This document shows positions 32,417 through 61,792 of a DNA stretch of 64,000 nt, piece by piece. The translations under genes and the position numbers were made by a program. The number at the start of each line of letters is the position of its first letter. Within the stretch, counting starts at the first letter, position 1. The notes below the pieces were generated by a model. That model was not told the DNA's origin. It did not search any database and saw only the letters and a program-made list of their open reading frames with translations. This DNA is from Schmidtea nova (taxonomy: Eukaryota), in NCBI GenBank assembly GCA_044892505.1, contig CM097882.1, forward strand, positions 407,278,001-407,342,000. Direction: 5' to 3'.

Positions 32417-32953
32417 TCAATCAATGAACAATATTCTATTCCGAATTTCTTCTATATCCATTTTCTTCCGAATAAACGACAATTTTCTCTTTAACATTTC
32501 CTTTGTTATTTGTAGGAGTTCAGGATTTTCTTTCTGCATGGACTCCTCGCTGGGTGCATCATCAAATTCGTTTTTGATCCTTGTTTCCACTACAATTGTG
32601 GCATCCTCGTTTGCTGCTCGTAATATTTTTCCGATTGCTGGCTCCTTGATTTTCCATGACGAAAGTTTTTTGATCTCCCACCATATTTGATCATTTTCGC
32701 CGAGAATTTCCACCGTTCCTTTGATTATGTGGATATAGTATTCCTCTTTATTTGATATTTTTATTTCCTTTGTCATTTGGAATTTTGATCTGCCGATAGT
32801 GAATACTTGGACTTTCATTTTTCTGTCGTTCAACTTTAGATAATTTGGGATTTGTAAATTGTTGACCATCTGGAATCTTCTTTGGCCGGCATGATTTCTC
32901 ATCATCTTCAGATAACTGTCGTACGTTTCTTTGGCCCATTGTATCTGCTCCAT
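32417..32953 (-). CDS. Hypothetical 178-aa protein, probably TE-borne
   Basis: Open ORF with protein-like composition. Upstream minus-strand TATATAA (about 33160) and CCAAT box (about 33220). Confidence 0.5.
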   Translation of the reverse strand: MEQIQWAKETYDSYLKMMRNHAGQRRFQMVNNLQIPNYLKLNDRKMKVQVFTIGRSKFQMTKEIKISNKEEYYIHIIKGTVEILGENDQIWWEIKKLSSWKIKEPAIGKILRAANEDATIVVETRIKNEFDDAPSEESMQKENPELLQITKEMLKRKLSFIRKKMDIEEIRNRILFID

Positions 32954-33688
32954 TTTTACTAAAAAGTTAATAATTTAAATTTGAGTTAATTTAATTTTGA
33001 CGCTAGGACTAAGATGGAGTACCCAAAGGATACTTTCTTAGTCGGTAGCGGTATAAATAAAAATATAAAATTACCGATTTAATTGAAGTTTTCTTAATTC
33101 TTTGAAATTTTAATTTTGTTTAAACTTGTTTTAAGTTTTATGATGTCTGAGTTTGTCTTATATACCCCCCCTTTTGATTTTTCTATCCCTTTTCTACCCC
33201 CTCACTCTCTTAGTATTAACCAATCAAATTAATTTCCCACTTTCCTCGTGCCGAAGAGTGCAGATTCACATGAAACAATTTAAAAGAAAATGTCACTAGA
33301 TACTAAACAATTAATCTACTATAATTGCATGCAAATAATTGTATCTCACTATACAAACGTCTCCTCGTAATCGATCCAAGGTCTCGGGGTCTCGGATTGA
33401 TTCGTAGAATGTCTTTCAGTTTTTCGAATTTCAAAGATGATGACCGATATGAGAATAATGACAAATATTGTTATAATGATAATTGTTATTAATAATGTTA
33501 CACAGAAATTCGTTTTCCGTAGATGAAGATGATATAGTTTTATTACTTAGGTTTAGAAGAATTAGGTTAGAAGAATGGGTATTCTTCAGTCGTTTCCTAA
33601 TTACGTCATTGATGATTTACTCGCTATTTTAATTAGAGTCGTTAGAGGTAAAATGAATCTAACTCCATCTAATCGTCGGGTTTTGATA

Positions 33689-35940: not shown

Positions 35941-36029
35941 ACAGAGCTCAAACAGCACTGGTCTGAGCTCACATATTATTAGTTTGAGCAGTATAAATAA
36001 CCAAAGTTATTATACTTATTATTATAATT

Positions 36030-36407: not shown

Positions 36408-36438
36408 ACAATTTAGTTAAATAAATTTTATTGTAAAA

Positions 36439-37452: not shown

Positions 37453-37810
37453 ATGAATAATATTAATTTAAATTCAACAAGAAGAATCATCGGAGGATTA
37501 AACAGTAAATTTATTATTTTTTAATTGATTATTATTATTTGCTTTTTTATAGACGTTAATTTATCAAATAATATTGCAGGATCTTCGTCAAACGGATTAT
37601 TAAATCAAAATAGAATTATTGGTAAAATTAATAATTCTTTATTTTTTCTTAATAAAAATTTTGTTTTTAGAAAATAATAATATGAATGCCGGTTATACCG
37701 AAAATAATCAAAATGCGATGAATTTCAATGCCCTGAATGTGACGTCTTTCGATGTCTCAAATATGACGACTTTTGATGTCCGATGCAGAGTTTTAATAAC
37801 TCTAGAAAAT
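37453..37810 (+). CDS. Spliced small Asn-rich Polinton gene (at least 3 exons)
   Basis: ATG 37453. Introns 37505-37552 (48 nt) and 37622-37670 (49 nt) are both GT-AG and keep the frame open. TATA-like motif at about 37365. Confidence 0.6.
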
Positions 37811-38106
37811 GTAATTTTTGTTTATTTTTATATGATGAACATATTTTTTAAATATTTTTTATGTTTTATAAATTAATGATCATATTTTTATGAATAAAAT
37901 ATTGTTTTTTAATAAATGATGATAATTTATGAAGAAAATTATGATGATCAAATTATGATATTTTATGAAGATGAAAATTATAAAGAAAATTATGATGATG
38001 AAAAATTATGATATTTTATGAAGAAAATTATAATGATGAAAATTATGTATAACAAGAAATCTTTATTATTTTGAAAAAGATGACAATAATGATAAAAATT
38101 ATGAAT

Positions 38107-38340
38107 AATGAAACCTTTTTTATTTTGAAAATGATGATATTTTATTACTTAATGAAACCTTTATTATTTTGAAAATGATGATATTTTATTACTTAATGAA
38201 ACCTTTATTATTTTGAAAATGATGATATTTTATTACTTAATGAAACCTTTATTATTTTGAAAATGATGATATTTTATTATTTTGAAAATGATGATATTTT
38301 ATTACTTTTTTAAACCTTTATTATTTTGAAAATGATGACA
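38107..38340. repeat. 44-bp tandem repeat, about 5 copies
   Basis: Unit aatgaaacctttattattttgaaaatgatgatattttattactt. Confidence 0.85.
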
Positions 38341-39269
38341 ATAAAAAATAATGATAAAAATAATGATATTTTATGACCATAAAAAAATAATGATGAAAAT
38401 TATAATATTTTTATACTGAAAAAATTGTTTGCTATTATTAATATGATTTTTATGATAAATATACCTTTAACATATTAAGTAATATATTTCAATTACTTAA
38501 TATGCTAAATGTTAAAATAATAATAAATATGATAATCTTTAATATAATATGTAATATTTTTATAACTATAACAAATTAAGTTAAAGAAAAAACATTTTTA
38601 ATTATTTTTAGCCATTTTATTTAAATTTTATTTAATATTCAGGTTTATTATATTTCAATTTTTGTAATAGTCGTTTCTATAATGATTGTCATATCATTAT
38701 GGAAAAATACTATTCATACAAATATAATGGTGTCACCCACCTACTATACCCAAAATGTAAAATTATAGAAACTACTTCTTATAACGAATTTTTTCACCAT
38801 CTTACCCAATATATGCCTTCTAAGAAATCTCTTTTTAATAGTTTATACCAAAACTATATCTCTAATAATAACTTTAATCCAAATAATAATCTTAACAATA
38901 ACAACAACCTTAATAATTCCAACAATAACAACTATCTTAATAATTCCAACAATAATAATAATTTACAAAATAATAATAATTACAACAATAACAACAATAT
39001 TAATAATTTACAAAATAATAAGAGAAAAAATACACATAATAGATTCAACTCCTAATTAAATAATAATAATCGACATCAGTGATGATGAAGATTTAAATAA
39101 TAATAATAATAATATTGATATTATAACCATCAGTGATGATTAAGATATTTATTATAATAATAGTAGTAATATTGATATTATATCCACCATTGATGATGAA
39201 GAAATAACCATCATCAATGATGATGAATTTTCAGATATAATTAATATTATAAATAATAATCAAATTGGC

Positions 39270-42200
39270 ATGGGGTTAGTCGAAGTCAATTCTGACTTGA
39301 ACGACAACCATGTCATAATTAAATTAGATGTAACAAATCTAGAATTAAAAACGGTCTCACTGCCGGACATTTTGTTAGAAAAATTAAATTTTTATGTAAA
39401 TAAATTAAAATCTTGTAAAATCCAATTTTGCCTTAAGGTGGAATTTGAGAAAGATGATGAGTTAAAATCTTTCGTCATCTCAAATTCCGCCAGAGTTTGA
39501 AGTGATACCTTCATTGACGAAGGTATCTCTAATTTAAATGAGAAGATAGTCCAAATTAATGAAAAAGGTAGTAATTGGACTATCAGTAAGATTGAGTACA
39601 TAAGTTTTGTGCTCACTAAATTTTCAGAAATAAGTCGGTTAAGTGGCAATAGTTTTATTGAAACACCTAGGTCATTAAAAAATTTAAGCTGTCTCATAAA
39701 TGTAAAAAATACTGATAATCTTTGTTTTGTATATAGTTTCTTATCTATTGTTAAGTATGATAGTGTCAATAGGCTATATAGAAATCGTCCCACTTCATAC
39801 GATCTTTCACAAATTAAATTTGACCCCAATGACATGCCGATGAAGCTGGCAAATATAAGTAAATTTGAACATCAAAATCCCGGCTATAGTATTAATGTTC
39901 TTAGTTATGATGAAAAGGCCTTGATTGACATTTCCGACGAAGATGCAGTTTTAAAGCATCCTTTTATTGACATAATTTACCGAAGTAAGGTAGTAGGAGA
40001 AATACCTATAAATTTATTATTAATCGAAAATAAAAAAACTTACCATTATGTGGCTATCACAGATTTAAATAGATTCCTTAATTGTAGAAATAGTTCAATA
40101 ACTCGTGTTAGGATTTGTAGCCAGTGGTGTCCTAGGTGTTTAAACGGTTTCAGGAATGATGAGTCTTTCAAGAAACATAGGGGTCTTTGTGATAGAAATC
40201 AGCTGGGTACTACCTTGTACACATTGCCCAAAAACAAATATCTAGAATTTAGTGATTGGAAGGAAACCGTGACTCATCCATTTGTTATTTACGTCGACTT
40301 TGAGGATATCTTACCTAAGGACACCCGTTACTTTCAACGCCACTTGCCTATTTCTGCCGGTTTGCTTTTAATTAATAATTTTACCGGTGTAAAAATTTAT
40401 AAATCATTTTTCGGATTAGATTGCGTCGATCAATTTCTTAAAAAAATTGAGTTGATTAGTAAAAATATTGTGACGCCGTTTTATTATAAAAATTATCAAA
40501 AGAAAATGATAATTACTGGCCTTCAACAATTACAGTTTGAAAACAGCACAATTTGTTATTTGTGCAATAAACCTTTAGTTTGTCCAGTTAGGGACCATGA
40601 CCATTTTACCGGTCTATTTCTTGGCGCAGCTTGCAAAGCTTGCAATGTATCAAGGCAAATTAGACATACCCTTCCTGTCATCTTTCATAATTTAAAGGGT
40701 TATGATCTACACCACATCTTAAAATTTGGCCTTTCGAAATATCATTCCTGGAATATTAGTTGTGTTCCATTGACCAGCGAGAAATTCGTTAGTCTTTTTG
40801 CTAGGATTGACTCCTTAACAGTTAAATTCATAGACTCTTACCAATTTGTCAGCGAGTCTTTAAATAATGCTGTCAAAACTTTAACTTCTTTACCCTTGAC
40901 CGAATCAGAATTTCAGGGTACAATAATAACTCAAAGGGAATTTTTCGTTATGATACGGCTACTTCTTTAGAAGTTTTACAAAACACACATGAATTACCTT
41001 CTATCTGGAAAGACGTGAAACCAGATGAATATGAGACAGCTCAGAGAATTTGGCGTGAAACCTCATGTACATCGCTTTTGATTACATGATGGTTTATTTA
41101 AAACTCGATGTCTTCCTTTTAACTGATTATTTTCAGCAATTTAGAGCTAAATCTATTGCCCATAACCTACTAGAGCCACTAAATTTCTTGGGAATTCCGG
41201 GTATGTCTTGGAATTCCGCCTTATTAGCTTTAAAATCTCCAATTGAGCTCCTCACCGTTATGGAGATGTATAATTTTTTTGAGGGCGGTATCCGTGGCGG
41301 CTTAACCTTTGTAAAAACAGGCCCGAATACCGCATTGCTTTACATAGATATAAATAATTTATATGGTTGGGCTTTAAGTCAGCCTCTACCATGCAGTAAC
41401 TTTGAATGGGTCACAGATGACCAATTATTAAATGAAATTATTGCTGAATGTACATCGGTAGATCTAGATGCACTTCATTATGGTTACACCATAGAAGGGG
41501 ATTTGGAAATACCGGCATCGATTCACGACAAACTGGATGATCTTCCAGTTGCCGCTAAAAAGATGTGTGTACAGGGTTCGAAAGTAGAGAAGCTGCTGCT
41601 AACGCACTATCCAAAGAGGAACTATGTTCTTCATTGGAGGCTTCTGCAACAGTTTATTAAATTAGGTGTTAAAATAACTAAAACACACAGAGCAATAAAA
41701 TTCACAAAAGAAAAAATATTTGAAAATTATATAAATACAAATACGGCGTTACGAGCAGCGTCGTCAAATAAATTAGACAAAAATTTTTATAAATTACTTA
41801 ACAACAGTCTTTACGGCAAGACTGTTGAAAATATTAAAAAACGAATTAATTTGTGTTTGTGCAATTTGTCGCAGAAATTGTTGACTTACTGTTCCAAACC
41901 GTCTTGCCGAAAATCCACTAAGATCGACGATGACTTGATTTCTGTTTTGTTAAGGAAGGAATCAGTGTGTTTGGATAGACCTAGTTACAATTGTCAAACA
42001 GTACTAGATTTATCCAAACTTAGGATGTACCAGCTGCAGTATGAAGAGTTGCAAAAATATCGTGACGACTTCAACTGCGAAATTAATATCGTTGCTGGGG
42101 ACACTGATTCCATCTTTTTGGAAATTAAAAATCTTTCTTTAGACTTACTCTTACCGGCTATGATTAGGGACAAACTTCTGGACACTTCGAATTATGACCC

Positions 42201-42552
42201 AAATCATCCTTTATACAGTAGGAACCATGATTCTGTCATTGGAAAATTCAAAGACGAGAATAAAGGGCTACTGTATGAAGAGTGGGTGTTCTTAAGACCA
42301 AAGTGCTATAGTTTAATGGGTGATGAGGCTTGTATGAAAGCCAAGGGGATTTGCACGAAAGATGCTGGACTAACACATCAGTCGTATCTTGATTGCTATA
42401 TAAATAATAAAATATATACAGTCCCCCAGTTCAGAATAACTAGTAAGAACCACCAGTTATTTACTATTAAAAATAATAAAAGGGCTTTGACTTGTAAGGA
42501 CGACAAGAGTAATTGGATAGATAAAAATAAGTTTGGCATATGGCCATTATAG
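39270..42552 (+). pseudogene. Protein-primed family B DNA polymerase (pPolB), disrupted
   Basis: Exonuclease motifs YVDFED, FHNLKGYD and YLKLDV. EndoVII/HNH-like RDHDHFTG...AAC..CN. Polymerase motifs YIDINNLYG, KLLNNSLYGK and GDTDS. Stop at about 39500 and frameshifts at about 40940-41065. An Asn-rich extension probably starts near 38699. Confidence 0.95.
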
Positions 42553-43759
42553 AGGCGGTGACACCAATATATTTGTAGATGATCCAGCAGAAGAAATCAA
42601 TGATGTACCGACATTGCCGATGGATGAAGATCCTTATGCCTTTTATGAGCCTCCGGACCAGCAATATTTACTATGATGACGAAAAATCAAAAAAAAGATT
42701 GAGAATGAACAATCGGCCCTCTTCAGGGCCACAATTCGCGATTGTATAAAATATTGCGCAATCAATTAAAACTAATATTGTTTAAATTTTAAAGATTAGG
42801 AAAACACGGATAATAAAAAGAAACAACGATTTGTGAACCATAATTATTGATTGTAAAAAGAGATTCAAAAAGATATGAAAAGGATATTAACCTGGGAATC
42901 AAACAGAGAGAATCAAAAAGATTTGTGAAAGTTAAAAAATGGTCCTCTTTAGGACCATAATTTTTGATTGTATAAAATATTGCGAAATCAATTAAAATTA
43001 TTACCGTCTTCTTTTATGTTATTGATTTAATGTATTTAGAGTTATTTTGTTATTTATTTTTAATTTTCTAAGTTTTTATTATCATTTTTATTATTTTTAT
43101 TATTCAAAGTTAATATTATTATTATTATTATCAAAGTTAATATTATTATTATTATTATTCAAAGTTAATATTATTATTAGTATTATTATTATCAATTTGC
43201 ACGCGGGGTGTTATAGAATGAAAGAAGCACAACGCGCGTTCAATGAGTACTGTTATTATCTTAAAAAAGTAAAGACAAAGAACGCGCGTTCAATAGTTAC
43301 TCATATTTTTATTAAAAATCCGCACACACACATGAAATATAATCGTGTACATAATTTCAAATACAAGTTATATTAGTCTTTGTTTCGGCGCACATGCATT
43401 GCAATGTCTTTGTTTACGTTGCACATGGATTGCAATGTCTTTGTTGTAATTGGGGAAGGAAATAGTCGTTGAAAAATTATAACACACACACATCATGCTT
43501 ACCTCACAATTACCTTTTGTTTGATATGTATATTATAAAAAATGTAAAAGGATTGTAACACACACACACCATGCTTACTTCTCAATTACCTTATTACACA
43601 CGTAGTTTGAAAAGTTTGAAGGTTTTTGACTCCTTGAAGGTTGAGCACCCACCATACACCTTCGAGGGTATGACCATTGGATAGACCTCTCTAAGACCTT
43701 TCGAATGATACCCTTGTTTGAAGGTTTGATCTTATTTGACCCTTGGAAATTTAAATTTA

Positions 43760-43927
43760 GAATTTGAAATGAGTCATCGATGACGTCATAAAATTCAAAT
43801 TTGAAATGAGTCATCGATGACGATATCGACGAGTCATAAAAAAATTTCTACCCACCCGGGGGTTCTTTGTTATGAGTCATTGATGAGTCATAATGTCTTT
43901 GTTTCCGGCTCCACACTTCTACCTACT
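43760..43927 (-). repeat. Right terminal inverted repeat of Polinton A with AP-1/CRE motifs
   Basis: Reverse complement reads AGTAGGTAGAAGTGTGGAGCCGGAAACAAAGACATTATGACTCA, nearly identical to the sequence from 50129. Confidence 0.9.
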
Positions 43928-44830
43928 TTTATGTACACCAAATCTCCAACTTTAATATCATGTACATGCACACGTTTGTCATAGCACTCTTTATGCTTCT
44001 TGATTATGCCTTATTTTCAATCCCGCTTGGACCCATACTGATTGCAGTCTTTCCTGCATTATTACTTTGTAATCGGATACGTCCATGTGTTGTGAGATTG
44101 GTGGTTGAAACTTTAAGTCAATCGGCATATTGTTTCGTCGTAGGTACATAAGATAAAATGGTTTTTCACCGGTGCTACCATTCACTGCATTTCGAAATGC
44201 AAACAAACATGGCTTAATGAACAAATCCCAATCTTTTTGTTTCCTGTTTACGTAAGACGAAATCATGTTAATTAATGTTCCATTAAATCTTTCGACTAAC
44301 CCATCTGTTTGAGGGTGATATTGGGATGTATTAAGTTTTAGGATTCCGAATAATTCGGTGATAGATTTAAATAATAATGCTTTGAAAGTTTGTTCCTTGG
44401 TCTGTGAGCAATGTCTTGGTGCTCCGTACTGAAATATGATGTTTTCTACAAATATTTTCGCCACAGTTTCTGCTTTTTGATTCTGCATTGCATATGCTTT
44501 CGGCCATTTTGTTAAATAATCACAAAATACGATGATATATTTATTGCCATTGGTTGCTTCTGGTAGTGGACCAACAATATCCATTGCTGTCATTTCCATT
44601 GGTGCTACCGGCGCGGGCATAGGTTTCAAAGGAAATTTTATTTTTCTCCATGTATTTCGCCTGGTCAGACAAACTTCACAAGTGTGACACCATTGTCTGA
44701 CGTCTTGCTCTATCGTATCCCAGTAATATTTCTGTTTTAATCTTGATAATGTTTTTTCGAGCAGATAAGTGTCCTCCCAATGCCCCCATCATGATACAAC
44801 AACAGTAATGCTGTTCGATGTTTTGTCGGT
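43928..44830 (-). pseudogene. Gypsy integrase
   Basis: YHDG..GGH...C..C zinc finger; AMDIVGPLP; DYLTKW; YHPQTDGLVERFN; WD..I...LFAFRN. Confidence 0.93.
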
Positions 44831-45050
44831 ACTACTATTACTAAGTTTTCATTTTTCACACATTTCAACAAACCGTCGGGGATGACGTATTTATGTTTTT
44901 CTTCTGCAATGTGCTTCCAGTCACTTTCTCTTTTTATTGTGACAGCATGTTTACGCAATTGATTCAATTCAACAACGTTTTCCTTATCACACTGTAATTC
45001 CTTCATATTATTTGCCGTTTTAATTGCCATAAATATTGTATTTTCATAAT

Positions 45051-46632
45051 TTAATTCATTTTGAATAATATTTTCTTCAGGGATTCTCGACATTGCGTCC
45101 GCATTTCCGTTTGACTTCCCGTACGGTACTTAATTTCGAAATCGTACTCTTGTAATGCAATTGACCACCTAATCAGCTTGCTTGCTGAATCTCTATGCTT
45201 CATTAACCATTGTAATGGATTATGATCCGTAAATACAATAAACTTTCTCCCAACCAAATATTGTCGAAAATTAGTTATCCCATATACTAATGCTAGAGTT
45301 TATTTTTCGATTATGGAATAATTTTTTTTCATGCGGTTTTAATGAACGGCTTGCATAAGCGATTACGTGAGCGATTATTAAAATATTGCACCTTCTAATT
45401 GCTGTCCCAGTACTGCTCCTAATGCAAAATTGCTTGGATCAGTCATCAGTATAAATGGTTTTTTGAAGTTCGGACATCTCAATATTGGTTGATTGATAAG
45501 ACTCTTTTAATTTATCAAATGCTTCTTGTTGAGCTGTTGCCCATTTGAATTTAGTCTGCTTTTTTAGCAACATGTTTAAAGGTTGTGCTACATGCTAAAA
45601 ATTCCTTATGAATTTCCTATAATAGCTCGCTAATTCAAGAAATGGTCGGACCTGGTCTGCATCTTTGGGATCGGATACTTTTTAATCTTTTCAATATTTT
45701 CTGGGTTTGGTTGTAACCCTCTCCGTGAAATTATATGCCCTACGTAAACAACTTCTGATTTTCCCCATTCACATTTTGAAGGTTTTATTTTTAGATTGGC
45801 TTCTTTTAGCCGTTTGAACACTATTTCCACTTCTTTTAAGTGTTCCTGAAAATTATTATATTATCTATATAGACTAATGAATGTGGTATATCACGCAAAA
45901 CAAAATTCATACCTCTCTGGAATGTAGCTGGTGCTCCAGTTAGACCGAATGGTAGCACATTAAACTCATATAGTCCTTTACCATCTGAAAATGCCGTTTT
46001 TCTCCTGTCTTCCTCTTTGACTTTAAATTGGTTATATCCTTTTTTAAGATCGATTACTGTAAAGAATTGTACTTCTCCCATCTAATCAAACATTTCTTGC
46101 GGAACTGGTATAGGAAATGTGTCTTTCTTGTCACTTGGTTTAATTTCCGATAATCGACACAAAATCGTAATTCACCGTCCTTCTTTTTCACTACTACTAT
46201 TGACGATGAGAATGGTGATGAACTATCTCTTATTATTTTAAATTCCTTCATGGCTTTAATTTGCCGATCGCTTTCCTCTTGATGTGGAATTCTGTACGGT
46301 CGTATTTTTATAGGGGTTTTATCAAGCAATGGTATTTCGTGTTCAATTATCTGAGTGAGTCCTAGATCATACTCATGTTTCGCAAATGCATTTTTATACC
46401 TTTTCAATAGTGTCGCAAATCCTTGTCTTTGTGCTTCTGTTAGATCATCACTTGTCACTTGTGGTTCTTTATAGATTTTGATATTTCTAGGTAGCTTTTG
46501 CGCTTCTTCCTCTTTCATTTTCGTCAGTTTTCCCAACTTTGTTTTGGGTTTCATCTGAATTGATTTTGTGCTACAATTAGATATTCTTACTGGCACTGTT
46601 TTGTCTTTAATTTTTACTATTTCGTCACACAT
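45051..46632 (-). pseudogene. Gypsy reverse transcriptase and RNase H (frameshifted)
   Basis: KKKDGELRFCVDYRKLN; IDLKKGY; LPFGLTGAPATFQR; YIDNI (YxDD mutated); TDPSNFALGAVL; FTDHNPLQWL. Confidence 0.95.
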
Positions 46633-46718
46633 AGGTACGACTTACTTTTCTATTAGTTTTTGATTTGGTTCGAATATACACTCTTCTTCGGAAACATTCT
46701 CTACATTAGCGTAGTATA

Positions 46719-48071
46719 TCACTTCGCTTTTTGGTGGTACTTCCAACGTTTATTTAAAAAGACCTCTCCTGCTTCATGAGCTACTTCATCAGTCTGCCTT
46801 TTTATTAATTTTCCCGTCTTTAAGTCCAGTGAGATTCCTTGTAATTGTTCCATGATGTCCATGCCAATCAAACATTTGACAGGGCTTTTTCTCATTACAG
46901 ATACCCAATGAATTACTTCCTGATTTCCAATGTTCAACTTTACTTCCAATTTTCCAATAATATTTAATACGTTATGCGTCATTGATTTAATAATTTTTGT
47001 TGTTTGCTTTATTTTCGTTTTTTCCTGTCTCGTTAGGAAACTTTCCGATACTATACTGTGACTCGAGCCTGAATCCAATAACGCTTCCACTTTTCTTTCA
47101 TTAAACTGTATGGATACTCTAGGTTGTTTTCCGTCAATTTCTATTGTCATCAATGCATAACTACATGGTAACCCAAGCATGTTCTTTTTTTCAATTTCGG
47201 CACTTGATGGCTCAATCTTTTCTAGTTCGATTTTAATCTCATCAACTGGCTTCATTTCTCTCAACTTTTCACTTGGGTATATTGGAGCTGTTGGTATAAA
47301 TGTCGGTGTGTACCATTTAGAAAGAATGTCAATTCCTGTTAATTTTGGCATTAGTTCAAGCAAGAACCTAGTCTCGGATTCTATTCTACTTTTCATTATG
47401 CTCCTTCGAAACACTTTCTGCTCTGACCTGCCGCCACCGTTCTCATTATCATGACCATTATTTTTATCCTCGTGATCGCATAGTGATTCTTCGCTTCTTT
47501 GATCATTTCTCAATTGCGCCCGTACATTTGCCATTTCCTTGTATTGGTGACTTGTAATGAAGAATCTCGCTAAAAATGGAATACAACCAATAATCATTTT
47601 CCATGACCATCCGGAAATTGTATATATCCTGTGAGCGGACAATACTTGTGATATTATCACCTTTACCGTTACTGCAATTACATAAATACCAATTAAACCT
47701 GCACATGCTTGTCCCAAAAACATAAAATTTCCCCAAATCTTTTCCATTGTTTTGTAAGTAGCTCGTTTAAAATGATAAGGTGTCAGCAGGTATTCGTAGT
47801 TAACTTTCCCTTCTCCATTCGGCAATATCGTATCAATCATTTCTGAAATCACGCGTTCCTTTTTTGACGGAAATAACAAATTTCTTTGGGCTTCTTCGAT
47901 GTCTTCGTTCGCATATAAGCCCATTTGTGCCATTTTATTCATTGATGTAAAATTTATTAAATATTCCAAATTCGTCAATTCCAATTTATCCGATGTTTTT
48001 ACTCTTCGGTAATCTGGTAGCGCTATCCATCTTGTGCTTAGCGATATAATGGAGCTAATAATCGATAACAT
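46719..48071 (-). CDS. Single ORF fusing the glycoprotein C-terminal/TM region to a retroviral-type aspartic protease
   Basis: N-half: GLY..EDI......LLFP, WGNFMFLGQACAGLIGIYVI..VK, GWSW. C-half: VEALLDSGSSHSIVS...CLIGMD. Confidence 0.9.
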   Translation of the reverse strand: MLSIISSIISLSTRWIALPDYRRVKTSDKLELTNLEYLINFTSMNKMAQMGLYANEDIEEAQRNLLFPSKKERVISEMIDTILPNGEGKVNYEYLLTPYHFKRATYKTMEKIWGNFMFLGQACAGLIGIYVIAVTVKVIISQVLSAHRIYTISGWSWKMIIGCIPFLARFFITSHQYKEMANVRAQLRNDQRSEESLCDHEDKNNGHDNENGGGRSEQKVFRRSIMKSRIESETRFLLELMPKLTGIDILSKWYTPTFIPTAPIYPSEKLREMKPVDEIKIELEKIEPSSAEIEKKNMLGLPCSYALMTIEIDGKQPRVSIQFNERKVEALLDSGSSHSIVSESFLTRQEKTKIKQTTKIIKSMTHNVLNIIGKLEVKLNIGNQEVIHWVSVMRKSPVKCLIGMDIMEQLQGISLDLKTGKLIKRQTDEVAHEAGEVFLNKRWKYHQKAK

Positions 48072-49295
48072 GGAAAGGTTTTTGGTTTAACTTGTTCATC
48101 CAGCAATATTCGGGTTATCGGTTCCATAAATCGTAGTTTCCCGCCAACACTTACTGGCAATTCACATCTACTAAATTTGGGTTTGTAACCGCCATCGCCA
48201 TTCGATTTCGGAGTATTCTTTATTCAATTTACAATCGTTCAAGATCATTTCTCTATATATGTTCTCCATGGTATTTTGGCTAAAATGAAATAAATAATCA
48301 ATTTTATTATTAAAGTAATGAGTTAGTTTTATATCATCCCTGTGGATTCTTGTTTTCGCTTCATGTACAGTCGTTTTTGCCACATATACTCCTTTGTAAT
48401 TTGTTACATAGACTGTTTGACCACATTTGCTCGTAATCTCCTTTTTAATAAAGCGCATGCTGTCTGTTGGCAAGGTTGACATTAAAACCGTTGCTGTTTG
48501 TCTTGTCCAGAGTGGAGTTGACCTGACTGTGCCATTTTGTTTATAATTCATGTTAAAGTTGTCTGGTCTCTCCTTAAATTGCTCTCCGGTTAACTCTTTG
48601 AAATTCATTATTTTTAAATGAGTTAGGTTACATATATTGGTTTTAACATCGTAAACGAGAATTGACTCCCCCGTGTGACAACTAGTTTGCTTCATATTAC
48701 AAAATGGATGAGTTTGTAGTTTTCCATTATCATCATCAAAAGATCCTTCGAACATTCTCAATTCGGTTAAGTATTCCTCTATTACCAGTGTGTGTTTAAT
48801 TATTTTCTCATTTATTTTATACGGTTCACCTTCACAGTCACCATCTGATTTCATCACTCCCTCCACCACTAACGTTTCTCGAATTTGATGATTTAATTTC
48901 GCTTTTAATCGAATTTCAGGACTGATTTTTATTTCTCCCGTTTGAAAGGCTGTTGAGCAATTTTCTGGCAATACATCCACCGGTCGTGGAATGGCGTGCA
49001 TTTTGATTAATGACGTATGGCTCCATTTACCACAGAAGAATACAAAAGTGGTTCGTTTTACAATGCATTCTCTAACTTTGGTACCCCGTAAATCTGATTC
49101 TTGATACACATGGTATTTTACTTCGTTTTCAATCTTTAATTTTTGAGGGTATGCGTCTGGACACTCTGACATATCAACCACTGAGTAAATTTTCCCCATT
49201 TCTGTTTGTGAACAATCGTATGCCACCAATGACGTTGTTTGTGCAATAACTGCACATAGGATAATCATCATGAACATCATCCAAGGAAATATCAT
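48072..49295 (-). pseudogene. Chuvirus-like (class III, gB-type) envelope glycoprotein ectodomain
   Basis: Signal peptide followed by LVAYDCS; conserved Cys pattern (FFCG, DGDCEG, KCG, CKLN); LTHYFNNK; ELPV....RFMEPITRIL in a shifted frame. Confidence 0.85.
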
Positions 49296-49388
49296 CGTCT
49301 TCCTTAGTTTTGGACTTACTCTTCCGTTTAATTGCCTTTGCGGTGAATCATTTTCCGGTTTCTTTCTTTTCTTTATTATCGATAAATT

Positions 49389-49796
49389 TAATGCTTTCCA
49401 CCCTCCACGCTCTCTCAGCCAATTAATTAAAGACTCATTTATTAGTCGAGCCGCAATGTCAATTAAATTATCAAGCTTGTCTGACTTTGTAAATGCATGA
49501 ATACCGATCTCTTAAACAACGTAGGTTAGAATTAGTAGCACTACTTCTTTATCAATCCCATTTTCGATCAACTTTTCTATTACTTCACATTTACAAAAGC
49601 TATCCTCTTTGCCAAATTTCCGCACTACTTCTGGAAGTCTGATTTTCACTTCCTCTACTATTCCTTTCAATTCCTCTTCCGTTTCAGTCTCTATTTTTAG
49701 AATTGGGTATACGACTTTAACCAAATTTCTTATTACGTCACTTGTTTCGTCAACTTCCTGCTTTAATTTTATTAAGGTTTTCTTCATCTCATACAA
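49389..49796 (-). pseudogene. Bcl-2-like domain in frame with the glycoprotein
   Basis: ORF 49796-49512 continues in frame past one TAA into EIGIHAF...LDNLIDIAARLINESLINWLRERGGWKAL (BH2-like). It is preceded by EVIEKLIENGIDKEVVLLIL (degenerate BH1-like). Confidence 0.62.
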
Positions 49797-50164
49797 TGTT
49801 CTAGACTTCGCATTCGCACTTTTTATTTTTCTTTTTTCGATATTCGTATCTTCAATAACTGTCTTTCTGCTGTCTGAGCATTATTATTAACCCCCTTTTC
49901 ACCATCATAACCATCAGTAACTATTTCAATTTCGCTTTCCTTTATTTCTTCTGTATCTGAAAATTTGACTTTGTCAAGCATCCTCGAATTATATTCTTTA
50001 TTTGCGATTATGCGATTTATTAAATACCCCTGACTTCCATTAGTACTTAAATACCCATATTCATCCAGTTCCTGTGACACACATCCGCAGTCATATAAAT
50101 ATTCATCGTCATCCAATTCTTCATCTTTAGTAGGTAGATGTGTGGAGCCGGGAACAAAGACATT

Positions 50165-50515
50165 ATGACTCATGCGTGGGCGGAAAAAAAAGAACAAAGA
50201 CCCCCCGGGGGGGGTAGCAAAAAATTTTTTTGATGAGTCATCGATGAGTCACCGATGAGTCATCGATGAGTCATACTTTTTTTGATGAGTCATCGATGAG
50301 TCATCGATGAGTCATAATTTTTTTTTGATGAGTCATCGATGAGTCATAATTTTTTTTTTTCAAAAATTTTTTTTCGCGCCAAATTTTTTTTTCAAAAATT
50401 TTTTTCGCGCCAAATTTTTTTTTCAAAAATTTTTTTCGTGCCAATTTTTTTTTTTCAAAAATTTTTTTCGCGCCAATTTTTTTTTTTTTCAAAAATTTTT
50501 TTTTTCAGGCCAAAT
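50165..50515. promoter_or_regulatory. AP-1 (TGAGTCA) array followed by E2F (TTTCGCGCCAAA) array in the Polinton B terminus
   Basis: Nine GATGAGTCA units at 50232-50349. Three TTTTCGCGCCAA plus two variants at 50371-50514. Function is inferred from motif identity only. Confidence 0.6.
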
Positions 50516-50914
50516 TTTTTAAGACAAATTATTTTTAGTCAAATTTTTTTTTTTCAAGACAAAATTCGAGTAAACAAAAATATTTACAGTAGGTGTGCAA
50601 ACTAAACAAAGACATTTTTTTATATGTGTGCATGTTTAATTAATTATTATTTGTCAAGTATGAAGCTTTTGCACTTCAAAACCATCACAGAAGAGGTTCT
50701 GCTTCCAGGGTTCTGATCGCAATGTTCTGCTTCCAGGGTTCTGATACTAAATGTTCTGCTACTAATTATTATTTAATTATTATTTTTTCAAACTAAACAA
50801 AGACTTTGCAACACGTGTGCAACATGAACAAAGACATTGCAATACACATGCAAACTAAACAAAGACACATGCAACACATGTGCAACATAAACAAAGACAT
50901 TAAAAAGACAAAAT

Positions 50915-51490
50915 TTATTTATAAATATATCGTTGTGTACGTGTACAAAATTTAGTTTCAAAATTATTTACATCTGAATTATTACTCGGAATATTATTCA
51001 TTGTAATATTATTCATCGGAATACTAGTATTTGTCGGAATATTATTCTTTGGAATATTTGAAATCTTCTCCAGCCGTATGGATGCCGATAACATCAGTAT
51101 AATTATTAATATAAATAAACTTATATAATGTAAAACAATTGCTGTTTTATCGTTTTCCACTGTTTGATTTTGATTTTGATATCTGACTTCATATTCTTTT
51201 TTAACAATAGTTTGATTTATACATTTTAATCGTTCAACTATTTTCATCATTATTTTGTTAATCATTTTTTCAATATCTTTATTTATCACATTATTTTTGG
51301 AAGGACATTGATTACATTGCAATTTTATTTGATTGCATTCAATGTTTGAGTAAAGACATATATCGTTATAACTCGCGCAAGTACTATCTTGTTTTCGAAA
51401 CGGATGGGATGATTGACAATCTTCCAAAGCTTGTTCTCCTTCAGTATTGTCAACACATAATAATAATAAAATAACTATAAATAATTTCAT
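50915..51490 (-). CDS. Type I membrane protein (signal peptide, Cys-rich ectodomain, TM)
   Basis: MKLFIVILLLLCVDNTEG signal peptide, several Cys, TM segment IVLHYISLFILIIILMLSA. Confidence 0.75.
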   Translation of the reverse strand: MKLFIVILLLLCVDNTEGEQALEDCQSSHPFRKQDSTCASYNDICLYSNIECNQIKLQCNQCPSKNNVINKDIEKMINKIMMKIVERLKCINQTIVKKEYEVRYQNQNQTVENDKTAIVLHYISLFILIIILMLSASIRLEKISNIPKNNIPTNTSIPMNNITMNNIPSNNSDVNNFETKFCTRTQRYIYK

Positions 51491-51554
51491 TTTAAAAACA
51501 AAAACTAATATAAAAACTAAATTTGTTCATACTAAAATATTTATTAAAAAACAA

Positions 51555-51971
51555 TTATGCGTATCTTGCATTGTCAACTCTCCAAATCGGAGTAACAACA
51601 TCTTTTTTATCAATCTTGTACCCTTGAATAATAACTGTAACGAACCAGTGTTCTTGATCCATGAAATCAATAGTCTGAAAAGCATCATGGAACCGAGTTT
51701 TTCTGTTATTGATGTACATTGTTTCTTTACAAGCCAAATTAACATTCATCTTTGAAAATAATCGATTTAATGCGATAATATCTTCCTTGGCAATAACTAC
51801 AGCAAGACTGTCATATAACGATTTTGTTAACTTTACCGGAAATGATAATCGATACGGTATTTCATTAACCAAAAAATAAAGTCGGCTGTCATAATACATC
51901 TGAACTGGTTTTACCTCAGTCTGATATATTTTTTCATCGCATATATCCAAATTTTGTTTTCGAGATTGCAT
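51555..51971 (-). CDS. Conserved Polinton hypothetical protein
   Basis: Intact ORF with diverged homologues at about 22370-22640 and 28267-28674. Confidence 0.8.
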   Translation of the reverse strand: MQSRKQNLDICDEKIYQTEVKPVQMYYDSRLYFLVNEIPYRLSFPVKLTKSLYDSLAVVIAKEDIIALNRLFSKMNVNLACKETMYINNRKTRFHDAFQTIDFMDQEHWFVTVIIQGYKIDKKDVVTPIWRVDNARYA

Positions 51972-52255
51972 GTTTTAAATAGTGACAATATTTTTTAAAA
52001 TGTCTTTGTATTTATACTGATGACTGGATGTCTTTGTCCAATCATATTCATGCATTTGTTTTGCACACAGTATGCACATGTATTGCAATGTCTTTGTTGT
52101 ATGCATGCATGTATGTATTAATTATTTATTTATTTATTATGAAGCTTTTTCATATAAAAACAATCACAGAATAAGTTCTACGTCCAGGGTTCTGTTTGCA
52201 ATGTTCTGCTACTAATGTATTTACTTATTTGTTTATTTCACAATTATTTTTATTA

Positions 52256-52296
<41 letters not shown>

Positions 52297-52523
52297 CTTT
52301 CATACAACACTTTCTTACTAATTATTTAATAAAAAAACTAATTACTATTTTATATAGTTAATAAAAAACTACTAATAAAAAATGTTTTACTCAAAAAGTA
52401 TTACTAATATTTAAATAAAAACTGAAATAAAAAAAAAATAAAAACTAAAATGAATAAAAAAACTTTTATTAATCTAAAATAACAAAAATGACAAAACTAA
52501 ATACATTAAACATGCAAATCAAA

Positions 52524-53192
52524 TTATTGTTCGGCGTTTTCTTTTTCTTTTTCTTCTTCTTCTTCTTCTTCTTCTTCTTCTTCTACTTCCTCCTCCTCTT
52601 CTACAACACCACCATCAGCCTGTCGATGGCATTCGGCACAATCCGGTGATTGTGGCGATTCCATACAATCATTAGATTCATCGGATGGATACGGACCATC
52701 GAGTGTTGGTGCTTCCAAATCTGTTGTTGTTGTTGTTGTTGTTTCATCTGCATCAATCGGCTCCGGAGTTGAATTGGGCCAGGTTTCCTTGATTTGCTCT
52801 TCTTCCTCATCGATTTTGTCCATTTGTTGGACTTCATATAATCTGAGGGAATTCCTCAACACCCAAATATTAAACTGTCGAATACGTTCGACGCAGCTCC
52901 CGCATTGGTACGCACAGATAATGTGCTCGGGTACCCTTGGGAGATCCGTATTCTGGCTCGTCATGTGATCGAGCACAATCTGGTTTATATCGATTCCCGT
53001 CAAGATCATTATCTTGTACGGGAACATCTCCGGAGCCGTGTAGACCAGAGCCGGCATAAGATTTGGGAACAGTTCCTCCAATTTCCGATATAACACGTTC
53101 ATTAATTTATCTAAAATAATAATAATATAAAATATGAAAAATAAATAATTAAAATCCTTACGGCTTTTAATTAAAGTTTGGGTCATCGACAT
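52524..53192 (-). CDS. Acidic, Cys-containing hypothetical protein, probable 51-nt intron (53111-53161)
   Basis: CAYQCGSC and CAECH motifs, poly-Thr and poly-Glu tracts. GTAAGG...TTTTAG segment near the 5' end. Confidence 0.7.
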   Translation of the reverse strand: MSMTQTLIKSRKDFNYLFFIFYIIIILDKLMNVLYRKLEELFPNLMPALVYTAPEMFPYKIMILTGIDINQIVLDHMTSQNTDLPRVPEHIICAYQCGSCVERIRQFNIWVLRNSLRLYEVQQMDKIDEEEEQIKETWPNSTPEPIDADETTTTTTTDLEAPTLDGPYPSDESNDCMESPQSPDCAECHRQADGGVVEEEEEVEEEEEEEEEEEKEKENAEQ

Positions 53193-53367
53193 AATTGTGA
53201 ATATAAACTATGTGAGATTGTTCATAGTATATATATCAAAGAAACACACATGATTTGAAACACACATGATGAACCAATCAGAATGAAGCATGCACAACAT
53301 GTCTTTATTCTATCGATACACACAGAGCCAATCAGAATCGTGCATTTCTAATGCATCGATATTGCAG

Positions 53368-53835
53368 TCATGAGTCACATGTTAGTATGAAATCAACAAA
53401 GGCTTTATCTTCTATAATTGATTTTATATCGTAAATAATATCATCAACTATAGTACTATAGTCTTTGTTTTTTAATCCTAATATGACTATTTTTCCGCTT
53501 GCAAATATATTTACACACATGGGATTATATTTGATATATCTCAAAGCTGGAAATAATTCTGGCTCGTAAACACATGGTATTAATTTCGATAATTCATTCA
53601 AATTACAAATAAATCCTAAATCCGCAGTTACAGTTATCGATTGTATCTTTAAATCATAAAACTCAACTTGTTCGTCACTAATAAATTCCCTGCATCCCAT
53701 TATTCTATATCTTCCTGATTTAAAGTATATTATTGGGTATTTTCCACTTCGATCTACAATTTGCTGGGGTTTTCCATTTGGAAATTTCATGTGCGATACA
53801 TCGGTCTTACCCTTGTAATTAATGTTTCTAATCAT
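53368..53835 (-). CDS. TATA-box-binding protein (TBP)-like
   Basis: IQSITVTADLG...NLNEL...YEPELFPAL...IFASGKIVILG is a TBP repeat. A degenerate first repeat reads IRNIN...YFKSGRYRIMG. Confidence 0.88.
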   Translation of the reverse strand: MIRNINYKGKTDVSHMKFPNGKPQQIVDRSGKYPIIYFKSGRYRIMGCREFISDEQVEFYDLKIQSITVTADLGFICNLNELSKLIPCVYEPELFPALRYIKYNPMCVNIFASGKIVILGLKNKDYSTIVDDIIYDIKSIIEDKAFVDFILTCDS

Positions 53836-53928
53836 TACTGAAAATATTTTTAAATGAAATTATTACTTTGATAACCGTTATTTAAAACAAATATAAACAA
53901 TAATATTAAGAAAATATAATTTTTAAAT

Positions 53929-54552
53929 ATGGAATTAAGAAATGATGCAGTGTTTCAAATTGTTGGTCCGAGCGGGAGTGGAAAAACTTTATTTGTTTGT
54001 AAATTATTGCAATCGAAATTATTCAAGTCGAAATTTAATAATATTTATTGGCATAGGGGTGCTGACGACGAAAGTGGAATGACACAAGATCAGTTTTGTA
54101 AAATAAAAATGACAATCATTAAAGGTTTCGATAAAAACTGGTCATCTAGATTAAAACATGGTGATGTGATTATCATTGACGACTTGTATCAAGAAGCAAA
54201 TAAAGAAAAGGATTTCAATAACTTATTTACGAAAATCAGTAGACATAAAGGTGTTACTGTTATTTTTATAACTCAGAATTTATTTCATCAGGGCGGTAGT
54301 CATCGTACTCGTAATTTAAATGTTCAATATCTTGTTGTTTTTAAAAATCCTAGAGATGCAACAGTTATTGATTTTCTGGCAAGACAAGCTTATCCTTCTA
54401 ATCGTAACTTTTTGATTGAAGCCTTTCAAGATGCTACAAAATCTCCTCATGGATATATTTTCCTTGATTTTACTCAACAATGCAGTGATGATTTAAGGGT
54501 TAGAACTGATATTTTTAACAGTGAAGGAGCCATGGTTTATAAACAAAGTTAA
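53929..54552 (+). CDS. A32/FtsK-like packaging ATPase
   Basis: Walker A GPSGSGKT, Walker B IIIDDL, SRH, FITQNLF, RT.NLN.QY.V.FKNPRD. Confidence 0.95.
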   Translation: MELRNDAVFQIVGPSGSGKTLFVCKLLQSKLFKSKFNNIYWHRGADDESGMTQDQFCKIKMTIIKGFDKNWSSRLKHGDVIIIDDLYQEANKEKDFNNLFTKISRHKGVTVIFITQNLFHQGGSHRTRNLNVQYLVVFKNPRDATVIDFLARQAYPSNRNFLIEAFQDATKSPHGYIFLDFTQQCSDDLRVRTDIFNSEGAMVYKQS

Positions 54553-54572
54553 TTCTGTTTGCAATCGTAATC

Positions 54573-55091
54573 ATGTTAATGAAATCTCGAGTAAAGTTTG
54601 AGCCATTGATAAAGGCTAGAACAAAGAAAGCTGGAAAGAAAACAAAGAAACTATTTACAAAGAAATCTATAAAGAAATCAAGAAAGAAATCCAAGAAAAT
54701 ACTTATGGATAATATTCCCAAAAATAATCAAATTAAATTGAAATCTAATGCTAAACAAACACATCATCGGAGTTTACCGTTTTTTAATGCATTACTTAAA
54801 GCCCCTTCCGTTAGAAGAATGGGTATTCTTCAATCGTTTCCTAGTTACGTCATCGATGATTTACTCTCTATTTTAATTAAAGTCGTGCGAGGTAAAATGA
54901 ATCTAACTCCATCTAATCGTCGTGTTTTGAACAAGCATAAAAAACCATTGTTGTCGCTAGTAAACTCAAAAAATAAAAAACTTATGCGCAAAGTAATATA
55001 TAAACAACAAGGTGGTTTTATCGCAGCATTGTTACCATTAGCATTATCTTTATTGGGAGGTGCTGGTTTATTGGGAAAAAGAAAGTCATAA
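54573..55091 (+). CDS. Basic Polinton core/membrane-lytic-like protein
   Basis: Lys-rich N-terminus. C-terminal QQGGF followed by amphipathic IAALLPLALSLLGG. Confidence 0.8.
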   Translation: MLMKSRVKFEPLIKARTKKAGKKTKKLFTKKSIKKSRKKSKKILMDNIPKNNQIKLKSNAKQTHHRSLPFFNALLKAPSVRRMGILQSFPSYVIDDLLSILIKVVRGKMNLTPSNRRVLNKHKKPLLSLVNSKNKKLMRKVIYKQQGGFIAALLPLALSLLGGAGLLGKRKS

Positions 55092-55094
55092 ACA

Positions 55095-55316
55095 ATGGGT
55101 CAATCATTACCTAATTTAAATTTAAATTTTAAATCTTCTTGTTGTAATGGAGAAGATCTGGACGAACCCAAAAGACGACGCCGGTTTCGGTGGAGTCGAA
55201 AAGCTAAGGAAAAAAGCACAGAAGTCGAAACAACAGACACAAAGTTGGTTATCGGGGCAACTTGCATACAGTCTAAACAAACCGATGCTGAAACGGTTTC
55301 CAACTCGAGCATATAA
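55095..55316 (+). CDS. Small overprinted ORF, possibly lipid-anchored
   Basis: MGQSL...SSCC...KRRRRFRW. Starts 4 nt after the upstream stop and overlaps the integrase in another frame. Confidence 0.45.
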   Translation: MGQSLPNLNLNFKSSCCNGEDLDEPKRRRRFRWSRKAKEKSTEVETTDTKLVIGATCIQSKQTDAETVSNSSI

Positions 55317-56192
55317 AACATATAGAATCAATGATTTGTGGCAAATGGACTTGATGGAAATGATTCCGTATTCCAAAATTAACAAGGGGTACAAGTATAT
55401 TTTAACATGTATTGATGTTTACAGTAGATTTGCTCGAGCAATTGGAGTCAAATCAAAATCTGCTAATGATATGGCAATTGCTATCAAGACAATGATGAAA
55501 AAGGATCGGCCAACTAATTTACAAACCGATTTGGGTAAATTTTAATTTAAATTTATAAATTTAATATTTTTTTAGGAAAGGAATTTTACAACAGTAAAGT
55601 CAAGGAAGTAATCAAGGGAATAAATCATTATTCGGTATTCTCACAATTCAAAGCCGCTCATGTCGAGAGATTTAATCGAACTTTGCGTGATCGATTGAAA
55701 AAATACTTTGTTTTTAAAGGCAATAAAACCTGGATTAATGTCTTACCTCAATTGATTCATAGTTATAATCATAGTGCTCATCGGGGTATAAATGGCAGGA
55801 AACCGGCAGAAGTAGTTGATACTGAAAATATTGTGAGTGAAGTGAAAGTAAAGAAACCAAAATATAAAGTTGATGATCATGTTCGAATTAGCAAGATTAG
55901 TACATCGCCATTCGTTAAAAATTTTGATAATAATTGGAGTGATGAGGTATATCAAATATCGAAAGTCAACACAGTGCAGAATCCTGTCATGTATACTATT
56001 CGTGACTCTGATAACAATATAATCAGTGGCAAATTCTACGAACAAGAATTACAAGTTATTCCTAAACCTACGATATTTAGAATTCAAAAGATTTTGAAGA
56101 CTAAAATGGTGGGTAAGGATAAACAATACTATGTTAAATGGCATGGATATAAAGAACCATCATGGATCTCGTCAAAAAATCTAGTAAAGTGA
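55147..56192 (+). CDS. Polinton retroviral-type integrase with C-terminal chromodomain, two exons (intron 55535-55575)
   Basis: LWQMDL, YILTCIDVYSRFA, TDLG/KEFY restored by splicing, HVERFNRTL, YYVKWHGY...SW. Spliced length 334 aa. Confidence 0.93.

Positions 56193-61756: not shown

Positions 61757-61792
<36 letters not shown>

Follow-up and report, generated by a model that had tools for sequence, protein, structure and literature searches.

An env gene in frame between gag and pol has precedents among flatworms. In the planarian element Burro, as described in the Burro section of PMC6431247 (Arkhipova and Yushenova 2019), BCL2 is followed by an in-frame env between gag and pol, and GAG-ENV-POL errantiviruses occur in nematodes, bryozoans and flatworms according to the main text of PMC13524379 (Chary and Hayashi 2026). 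Burro was published in 2019 and the 2026 catalogue includes a close relative, so this gene order, which the first-pass annotation had not recognised, is already known, and finding it here overturns nothing.

The window, a 64,000-nt stretch of the Schmidtea nova genome, holds what is very probably a degraded copy, split by Polinton-like insertions, of a 17-kb Ty3/Gypsy family that encodes Gag, ubiquitin-like, Bcl-2-like, Env and Pol parts in one frame and likely forms enveloped particles after cleavage of the precursor by host signal peptidase and its own protease.

A dead copy between two Polinton-like ends

The element's features in the window are listed below, from the upstream end of the coding strand downwards.

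43928..50128, minus strand: Ty3/Gypsy LTR element, central fragment of a Gag-Env-Pol polyprotein, decayed copy (nucleotide match to open copies and indel count)
49990..50128, minus strand, limits approximate: end of the second ubiquitin-like repeat (PF11976 E 0.0015 in open copy, below cut-off)
49390..49880, minus strand: Bcl-2-like helical domain, interrupted by an in-frame stop (Pfam Bcl-2 E 0.0018 in open copy, below cut-off)
49221..49295, minus strand: internal hydrophobic segment, predicted Env signal sequence (hydropathy peak 2.44, just before AYDC in the open copy)
47720..49220, minus strand: Env ectodomain, Monjiviricetes fusion glycoprotein family (PF24664), frameshifted, with a deletion near 48165
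47640..47710, minus strand: predicted Env transmembrane anchor (hydropathy peak 2.33)
46836..47129, minus strand: aspartic protease (LDSG at about 47078-47067), in frame with the Env anchor and tail (RVP E 3e-8)
45700..46300, minus strand, limits approximate: reverse transcriptase, frameshifted (RVT_1 E 1.8e-15)
45130..45500, minus strand, limits approximate: RNase H, frameshifted (RT_RNaseH E 4.9e-16)
43928..44800, minus strand: integrase (H2C2 and core), cut off at a Polinton-like end (Integrase_H2C2 E 1.4e-9, rve E 8e-4)

The stop-free frame 46719-48086 (minus strand, 455 codons) carries PF24664 (Monjiviricetes_fusion, E 4.9e-26, profile positions 431-634) followed by the retroviral aspartyl protease. 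The first-pass annotation had described just such a single frame from the glycoprotein membrane region into the LDSG protease; its coordinates, 46719-48071, start at the first ATG (48071), and the stop-free span reaches 48086. It had also correctly placed the ectodomain directly upstream, where frame 48171-49511 holds the first half of the same profile (E 1.1e-30, positions 5-343) and a neighbouring frame holds ELPV...FMEPITRIL, and Pfam matches bear out its reading of reverse transcriptase (RT), RNase H (RH) and integrase (IN) in Ty3/Gypsy order.

The window copy is dead, as had been proposed, and is split by two Polinton-like insertions. The piece is 94.6-95.5% identical in nucleotides to four open copies (spans 43928-48164 and 48168-50129). 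Compared with one open natural copy, 4.3-4.4% of aligned bases differ and 21 indels are present, 18 of them frame-changing (1-2 may be alignment end effects), the largest being 106 nt in the Env ectodomain. An in-frame stop lies at 49512-49514 within the Bcl-2-like part, and the RT reads YIDN (45860-45871), a form counted once against 38 YIDD over fetched loci that overlap and include the window's own place (L001).

Positions 43928 and 50128 are junctions with two Polinton-like ends and not ends of the element. The flanking pieces are:

50129..50175, plus strand: Polinton-like insertion end, beginning AGTAGG (inverted copy in L056 up to about 208)
43880..43927, minus strand: second, truncated Polinton-like insertion end (inverted match to the end at 50129)
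32420..33554, minus strand: further piece of the same element family, comprising the end of the post-integrase membrane module, a spacer and the start of ORF2 (92.7% identity to L034:6599-7739)

This copy's 5′ LTR and gag are located at L056:208-3725, ~20 kb outside the window, cut off from the window piece by the insertion at 50129; the 6-mers flanking the Polinton-like end at 50129 and in L056 agree at five of six positions, and 88 loose contig ends fall at 50129 in run X1. The second insertion carries a pPolB at 39501-42552 (DNA_pol_B_2 E 6.5e-16). A 3′ LTR of this copy was found neither in the window nor in the 10 kb before it. Insertion into Polintons was considered as a rule for the family and rejected: Polinton-like DNA of at least 200 bp occurred at 4 of 31 copy-plus-flank loci besides L045 (5/31 with L045), some of the 31 being mostly element.

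A young, high-copy Ty3/Gypsy family

The best 111 of 7,426 candidate copies in the same genome were scored, a choice by which the sample leans towards intact copies. No stop interrupts the Env-protease junction in 89 of the 111, and in 22 a single frame of 3,401 or 3,402 codons is preserved, in keeping with the earlier proposal that the fusogen lies between the gag side and pol in one precursor; the glycoprotein is thus no one-off. Pfam matches order the open frame as Gag, ubiquitin-like, Bcl-2-like, Env, protease (PR), RT, RNase H and IN, with CCHC knuckles in Gag and the order PR-RT-RH-IN. Full copies measure ~17 kb (16.8 and 17.0 kb).

All five copies examined carry TG..CA LTRs of ~810-860 bp and 4-bp target duplications, and their LTR pairs differ by 0, 0, 0, 1 and 6 substitutions. 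The primer-binding site is an 18/18 complement of host tRNA-Trp(CCA) plus CCA (the tRNA was located by a shorter sequence pattern, a first pattern having given no match), and a purine run precedes the 3′ LTR. The best PDB matches to the RT-RH of the open copy are Ty3 RT (E 3.6e-89 and 9.1e-89), above retroviral RTs, and no BEL-type Pfam family matched the open polyprotein. The family is a Ty3/Gypsy LTR retrotransposon (Metaviridae). It is also compact, very young and high-copy: among the matches listed, 124 of 150 show identity of 78% or more.

The identical domain order recurs in distant families with only 50-53% identity in RT and 37-39% in Env. Each domain is under purifying selection, with dN/dS between subfamilies of 0.012-0.022 for RT, 0.033-0.055 for the Env ectodomain, 0.16-0.36 for the Bcl-2-like domain and 0.18-0.21 for the post-integrase ectodomain; selection on Env nearly equals that on integrase in strength. 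A conserved 90-residue block lies between PR and RT (32-88% identity across five copies) and has no dUTPase match in Pfam or PDB. Likewise, MATH, BIR, RING, ankyrin and Smc families gave no Pfam match at E up to 0.5 in the open polyprotein. Protein database searches with the Env-protease frame (against longer proteins), the ubiquitin/Bcl-2 region and the post-integrase module returned no match; such blanks are weak and are not evidence of novelty, and the search with the Env-protease frame missed even proteases.

Env belongs to the chuvirus-related (Monjiviricetes) glycoprotein family, as the first-pass annotation had it: beyond the two matches in the window, PF24664 is matched at E 3.9e-80 in the open copy, and open copies keep the ectodomain profile over positions 5-632 of 653. 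The suggested fusogen similarity holds at the level of the Pfam family and found no counterpart among solved structures, where the best match (E 0.089) fell on unrelated proteins and none was significant; the class III fold of Env accordingly rests on Pfam and PMC13524379. The predicted signal segment before Env recurs at the matching place in two distant families, and in the open copy the predicted Env anchor alone exceeds 1.5 in hydropathy over the stretch from Env to the integrase terminus.

The Bcl-2-like domain, also proposed earlier, is upheld by the profile of copies, whereas the window copy taken alone matches weakly (E 0.073). A profile of 11 element copies matches Bcl-2, Bcl-xL and Bax at E ~1e-6 over the BH1-BH2 region, a result biased by the fact that its distant families (profile A1) had been chosen by Bcl-2 search. 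With 49-60% identity, the domain changes faster than most parts, and its BH1 NWGR-type motif is degenerate. Its structure model is poor (pLDDT 46); all rows listed by Foldseek with this model were Bcl-2-family chains, none at E <0.29, and we do not count them as proof. The two ubiquitin-like repeats align with each other better than 2000 of 2000 shuffles, and their profile weakly matches ubiquitin-like chains in PDB (best E 0.0027).

Behind integrase, two distant lineages carry a predicted second membrane protein fused to the polyprotein, consisting of a signal segment, an ectodomain, an anchor and a tail; the ectodomains of the two lineages show no likeness, and the tail ends T-x-V in 14 of 17 copies examined. 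N-glycosylation sites in this second ectodomain are not clearly enriched (P 0.04, 0.13, 0.34 and 0.27 in four copies), and AlphaFold2 was uninformative (pLDDT 33 from 6 sequences). A fibronectin-like ectodomain, suggested for the distant family by eye from a motif, was dropped for lack of support from Pfam or PDB. The separate downstream ORF2 matches ISG20L2 (E 2.6e-7), which like ISG20 is of the DEDDh class, and by eye shows E at the third acidic position.

A predicted polyprotein path through the membrane

The family likely makes enveloped particles; host signal peptidase and the element's own protease would cut the precursor, and the particles may be infectious. In the predicted arrangement, everything ahead of Env (Gag, both ubiquitin-like repeats, the Bcl-2-like part) would remain cytosolic, the internal signal sequence would direct Env into the ER, and the single Env anchor would bring the chain back into the cytosol, where PR-RT-RH-IN would lie. 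Another signal sequence, encoded behind integrase, would then deliver the second ectodomain to the ER, and the chain would close with an anchor and a short tail. Once the precursor is cut, the first signal sequence would be left at the C-terminus of the Gag-Bcl-2 part as its membrane anchor, the end at which cellular Bcl-2 proteins have theirs, and would tether Gag to the membrane holding Env. Gag, Env and Pol would be produced in equal numbers, neither frameshifting nor splicing being involved, the ISG20-like exonuclease ORF would likely use its own promoter, and the Bcl-2-like domain would likely dampen death of the producing cell.

A bolder version, which we put forward tentatively, is possible: these planarian elements would be two-glycoprotein endogenous viruses encoding one four-pass polyprotein, with a fusogen before Pol and a second, lineage-specific type I membrane protein behind integrase. 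With its exchangeable ectodomain, the second protein would serve as the fusogen's partner for attachment or cell-junction targeting, and the Env signal sequence would also anchor the tail of the Bcl-2-like domain. Such a retroelement, if this is true, would resemble an RNA virus in its polyprotein plan and in dividing attachment and fusion between two proteins, an arrangement absent from the literature surveyed.

Alternatively, the family might move intracellularly only, Env acting as a membrane tether or in passage between touching cells and not in free enveloped particles. Equal amounts of Gag, Env and Pol, which would be unusual for a budding retrovirus, fit this reading, as does the lack of any R-x-K/R-R furin-type site in Env; furthermore, PMC13524379 does not infer present-day activity directly from copy number. 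However, the furin site is not always conserved in gB/chuvirus-type Env (PMC13524379), the whole ectodomain profile is kept under purifying selection of nearly integrase strength, and it is kept even in lineages that share so little of their Env sequence, so we consider purely intracellular movement rather doubtful.

Unlikely, too, is a host-tolerated helper, whose Bcl-2-like and ubiquitin-like domains would keep stem cells alive and so explain its retention. Such a role would be in line with purifying selection on the Bcl-2-like domain and with Burro1, whose IAP region (RING-BIR) is reported to protect planarian stem cells (study cited in PMC13465017); but the polyprotein has none of the BIR, RING, MATH or ankyrin matches, a selfish element, too, should show purifying selection between its subfamilies, and the Bcl-2-like domain changes faster than most other parts. 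Finally, a viral glycoprotein inserted into this Gypsy copy alone, or an error of assembly, conceivable while only the window copy was in view, broken and flanked by unrelated insertions, is refuted by the copy survey and vanishingly improbable: the junction recurs in the 111 scored copies over the three large contigs and is common to several families, all 30 bins of the stretch are covered by contigs from two public runs (both of one study and perhaps from the same source), and a relative is published for another genome (PMC13524379).

The preferred reading thus remains that of likely enveloped particles, and with LTR pairs differing by 0-6 substitutions, this young, high-copy family lets the question of such particles be approached by observation alone.

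Comparison with known systems

The nearest architecture is that of Burro from Schmidtea mediterranea and Dugesia. As described in PMC6431247, it shares with the window family the single polyprotein with retrotrans_gag and CCHC knuckles, a Ubi2/SUMO-like (PF11976) motif before BCL2 (a weak match in our family), an in-frame Env, with matches to mononegavirus fusion proteins, between BCL2 and protease, and accessory ORFs. Burro differs in exceeding 30 kb with an ORF1 of 4,873-5,140 aa, and in having MATH, BIR, ankyrin and Smc motifs. It has a dUTPase-like region between PR and RT, the place of the conserved 90-residue block in our family. Because it lacks matches to MATH, BIR, ankyrin and Smc, the window family, although built like Burro, is not filed as Burro1.

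Platyhelminthes_Rhabditophora_Smed_errantivirus_1, an HSV/gB-type errantivirus (PMC13524379), likewise has GAG-ENV-POL order, a gB-type Env filed as ENV_HSV and many near-identical copies (45 listed). A 251-residue stretch of its Env aligns without gaps to that of the window copy, with 194/251 identical (~77%, counted by eye), and Smed_errantivirus_3 resembles by eye the distant family at L122/L123. The terms 'polyprotein', 'Bcl' and 'Burro' do not occur in the main text of PMC13524379. Less its 3,000-nt flanks, the Smed_errantivirus_1 interval amounts to ~2,930 codons, ~440 fewer than in the window family; as this shortfall is the size of the post-integrase module, the module probably lies outside that annotation or is absent there.

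ENV also precedes POL in non-canonical nematode ERVs, which are metaviruses (Sacco et al. 2022, cited in PMC13524379). Chuvirus-type glycoproteins are found in mosquito BEL/Pao elements (Dezordi et al. 2020, cited in PMC13524379), but these form another superfamily, whereas the RT of our family is Ty3-like.

To this picture the present genome may add the second membrane protein behind integrase and the ISG20-like exonuclease ORF, both unmentioned in the Burro section of PMC6431247 and the text surveyed of PMC13524379; figures or supplements elsewhere in the literature may already show them. For the exonuclease, the closest parallel is in bdelloid rotifer LTR elements, where an additional ORF downstream of pol encodes a 3′-5′ exonuclease of the DEDD family (Rodriguez et al. 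2017, PMC5408684). In the rotifer DEDDy ORF3, DEDD is changed to DEED (PMC5408684), and ORF2 likewise has E at the third acidic position (by eye); ORF2, by contrast, matches ISG20/ISG20L2 and accompanies an Env, whereas a true env is missing from most of the rotifer Vesta and Juno elements (PMC5408684).

A recently active one-frame Gag-Env-Pol family

The element belongs to a recently active Ty3/Gypsy family whose polyprotein is encoded in one frame. We searched the genome with the Env anchor-to-protease stretch and scored the best 111 of 7,426 candidates, a choice that over-represents intact copies. Within this best-scoring set, 89 of 111 copies had no internal stop in the stretch, and in 22 of 111 it lay within a single frame of 3,401 or 3,402 codons. 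Such open copies (intact polyprotein frame) encode, in order, retrotrans_gag, CCHC knuckles, a weak Bcl-2 match, PF24664 (Monjiviricetes fusion glycoprotein, chuvirus-related; E 3.9e-80 in an open copy), protease, RT, RNase H, integrase and a C-terminal extension, followed by a separate frame of 483-515 codons (ORF2). All five copies examined carried TG...CA LTRs (~810-860 bp) and 4-bp target duplications, with LTR pairs differing by 0, 0, 0, 1 and 6 substitutions; two measured copies were 16.8 and 17.0 kb long. The primer site complements host tRNA-Trp (18/18), and Ty3 was the best match of RT-RNase H among solved structures. A search with the post-integrase domain placed 124 of the 150 matches listed at ≥78% identity, after which a 66-71% subfamily begins; the ≥78% subfamily therefore comprises well over 100 copies. 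Between subfamilies, dN/dS was far below 1 for every domain with a computable value (several synonymous distances were saturated), and 0.033-0.055 for the Env ectodomain. Separately, the matching tRNA-Trp(CCA) gene lies in a tandem array of ~282-bp period (G000:C3 from ~128.02 Mb; L124-L126); its pattern has 1,984 genome matches, all on the forward strand, and the first 100 listed fall in this array.

Searches with Env and Bcl-2 profiles recovered at least two further Gag-Env-Pol families (L108-L123; frames of 3,059-3,082 codons), and families only 50-53% identical in RT retain the same domain order. In these distant families the ubiquitin-like repeat is single, the Bcl-2 domain scores better (E down to 3.4e-7), and ORF2 is exonuclease-like with an acidic motif that, by eye, appears degenerate. 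In the window's family, the Bcl-2-like domain is preceded by two repeats with a resemblance to ubiquitin-like folds (PF11976 E 0.0015; best PDB E 0.0027). The Bcl-2-like domain itself scores below the Pfam cut-off and yielded a poor predicted structure; a profile of 11 element copies, the distant ones chosen by Bcl-2 search, matched Bcl-2, Bcl-xL and Bax at E ~1e-6. Short-frame Bcl-2 matches elsewhere (L096-L104, L107; best E 8e-16) are probably host Bcl-2 family genes.

The window copy and its Polinton-like surroundings

Features matched in the window
46719-48086, minus: stop-free frame, C-terminal third of PF24664 (E 4.9e-26), then retroviral protease (E 3e-8)
53368-53859, minus: TATA-binding-protein-like ORF in Polinton-like insertion (PF00352 E 3.8e-14)
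53920-54552: A32-type ATPase, adjoining that ORF
55126-56192: integrase-chromodomain of the insertion, near the same ORF
26707-27624, minus: separate Gypsy RNase H-integrase fragment
13803-14426, minus: Tc5/pogo-type DNA-binding fragment

The first-pass annotation had read a stop-free Env-to-protease frame, RT, RNase H and integrase behind it, and a dead copy, and all three readings held. The N-terminal half of the PF24664 profile matches in a frame upstream of 46719-48086 (E 1.1e-30), and the RT, RNase H and integrase pieces come after the protease. The copy is dead: at 4.3-4.4% divergence from one open copy it carries 21 indels (18 frame-changing), Env has lost 106 nt in one deletion, RT reads YIDN, and an in-frame stop interrupts the Bcl-2-like part. 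An antisense open frame (49189-49890, plus) faces the Bcl-2-like domain and the predicted signal sequence and recurs at the same place in L089, L092 and L094, with 223 codons in three related copies; it may be a codon-bias by-product.

Both limits of the piece are ends of Polinton-like insertions, each starting AGTAGG. The right one begins at 50129, where public sequencing run X1 has 88 loose contig ends; its far end lies in L056, ~20 kb beyond the window, beyond which the element continues with gag and the 5' LTR (L056:208-3725), and the flanking 6-mers match at five of six positions. The left one is truncated, and the element family picks up again at 33554-32420, and ~1.2 kb of the element is absent between the two pieces; no 3' LTR of this copy was found nearby. 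Several Polinton-like copies with the common AGTAGG end share one neighbourhood (window 33556-43927 and 50129-59500; L055; L056:1-207), the region 33682-34926 recurs at 56534-57784 (84-94%), and depth over the end motif is very high among public contigs. ORFs at 56153-57205, 57575-58546 and 54543-55091 had no Pfam match, and no capsid gene was identified in the Polinton-like copies of this neighbourhood. Another repeat family, nested in the insertion (60200-64000 and L044), is a large inverted duplication spanning the window's right edge (98.5-99.6% identity).

The post-integrase module and proposed processing

Integrase is followed by a hydrophobic segment, then by an ectodomain, and finally by a strong anchor with a short tail; the segment ends in a small-residue motif, which we take to be typical of signal cleavage. 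In the distant lineage this arrangement recurs around a shorter ectodomain, and no likeness between the post-integrase ectodomains of the two lineages was detectable. Among 17 copies examined, from two lineages only, tails end in T-x-V in 14 and T-x-L in one, and are broken in two. The ectodomain had no Pfam or PDB match, an uninformative predicted model and no clear enrichment of glycosylation sites. ORF2 matches ISG20L2 (E 2.6e-7) and ISG20 (E 1.1e-5), with CCAAT-like and TATA-like words ahead of it by eye.

In the processing scheme we propose, Gag, the ubiquitin-like part and the Bcl-2-like part would be cytosolic, an internal signal sequence would make Env lumenal, and one anchor, the sole segment between Env and the integrase end to exceed the hydropathy threshold, would leave Pol cytosolic; a second signal sequence, lumenal domain, anchor and tail would follow. 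Signal peptidase would release both ectodomains, the element's own protease would cut out Gag and Pol, and the first signal sequence would be retained as a tail anchor of the Bcl-2-like domain. That the polyprotein holds two glycoproteins is a tentative and rather unlikely reading. Judged from sequence, enveloped particles would be the likeliest product, ahead of the main rival, a role inside cells or at cell contacts; Env showed no furin-type site.

Relation to known elements

The element is real and well supported, and its main point is already published. The first-pass annotation did not recognise the gene order; Chary and Hayashi (2026, PMC13524379) report that nematodes, bryozoans and flatworms carry GAG-ENV-POL elements whose Env is of the gB type, and they catalogue six from Schmidtea mediterranea. 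A 251-residue Env stretch of Smed_errantivirus_1 from that source aligns gap-free with the window's (194/251 identical, eye count). Taken with the richness in A+T, this alignment points to a dugesiid planarian as the likely host. The portions of the literature on related elements available to us do not mention a post-integrase membrane protein, which figures, Grohme 2018, Sacco 2022 or the Burro1 function paper may contain. DEDD exonuclease ORFs occur in rotifer LTR elements (PMC5408684), and Burro1 is credited with a protective role (via PMC13465017). The window's family and Burro1 are of different size, and the former has no MATH, BIR or ankyrin matches; we therefore describe it as Burro-like in build, yet do not file it as Burro1.
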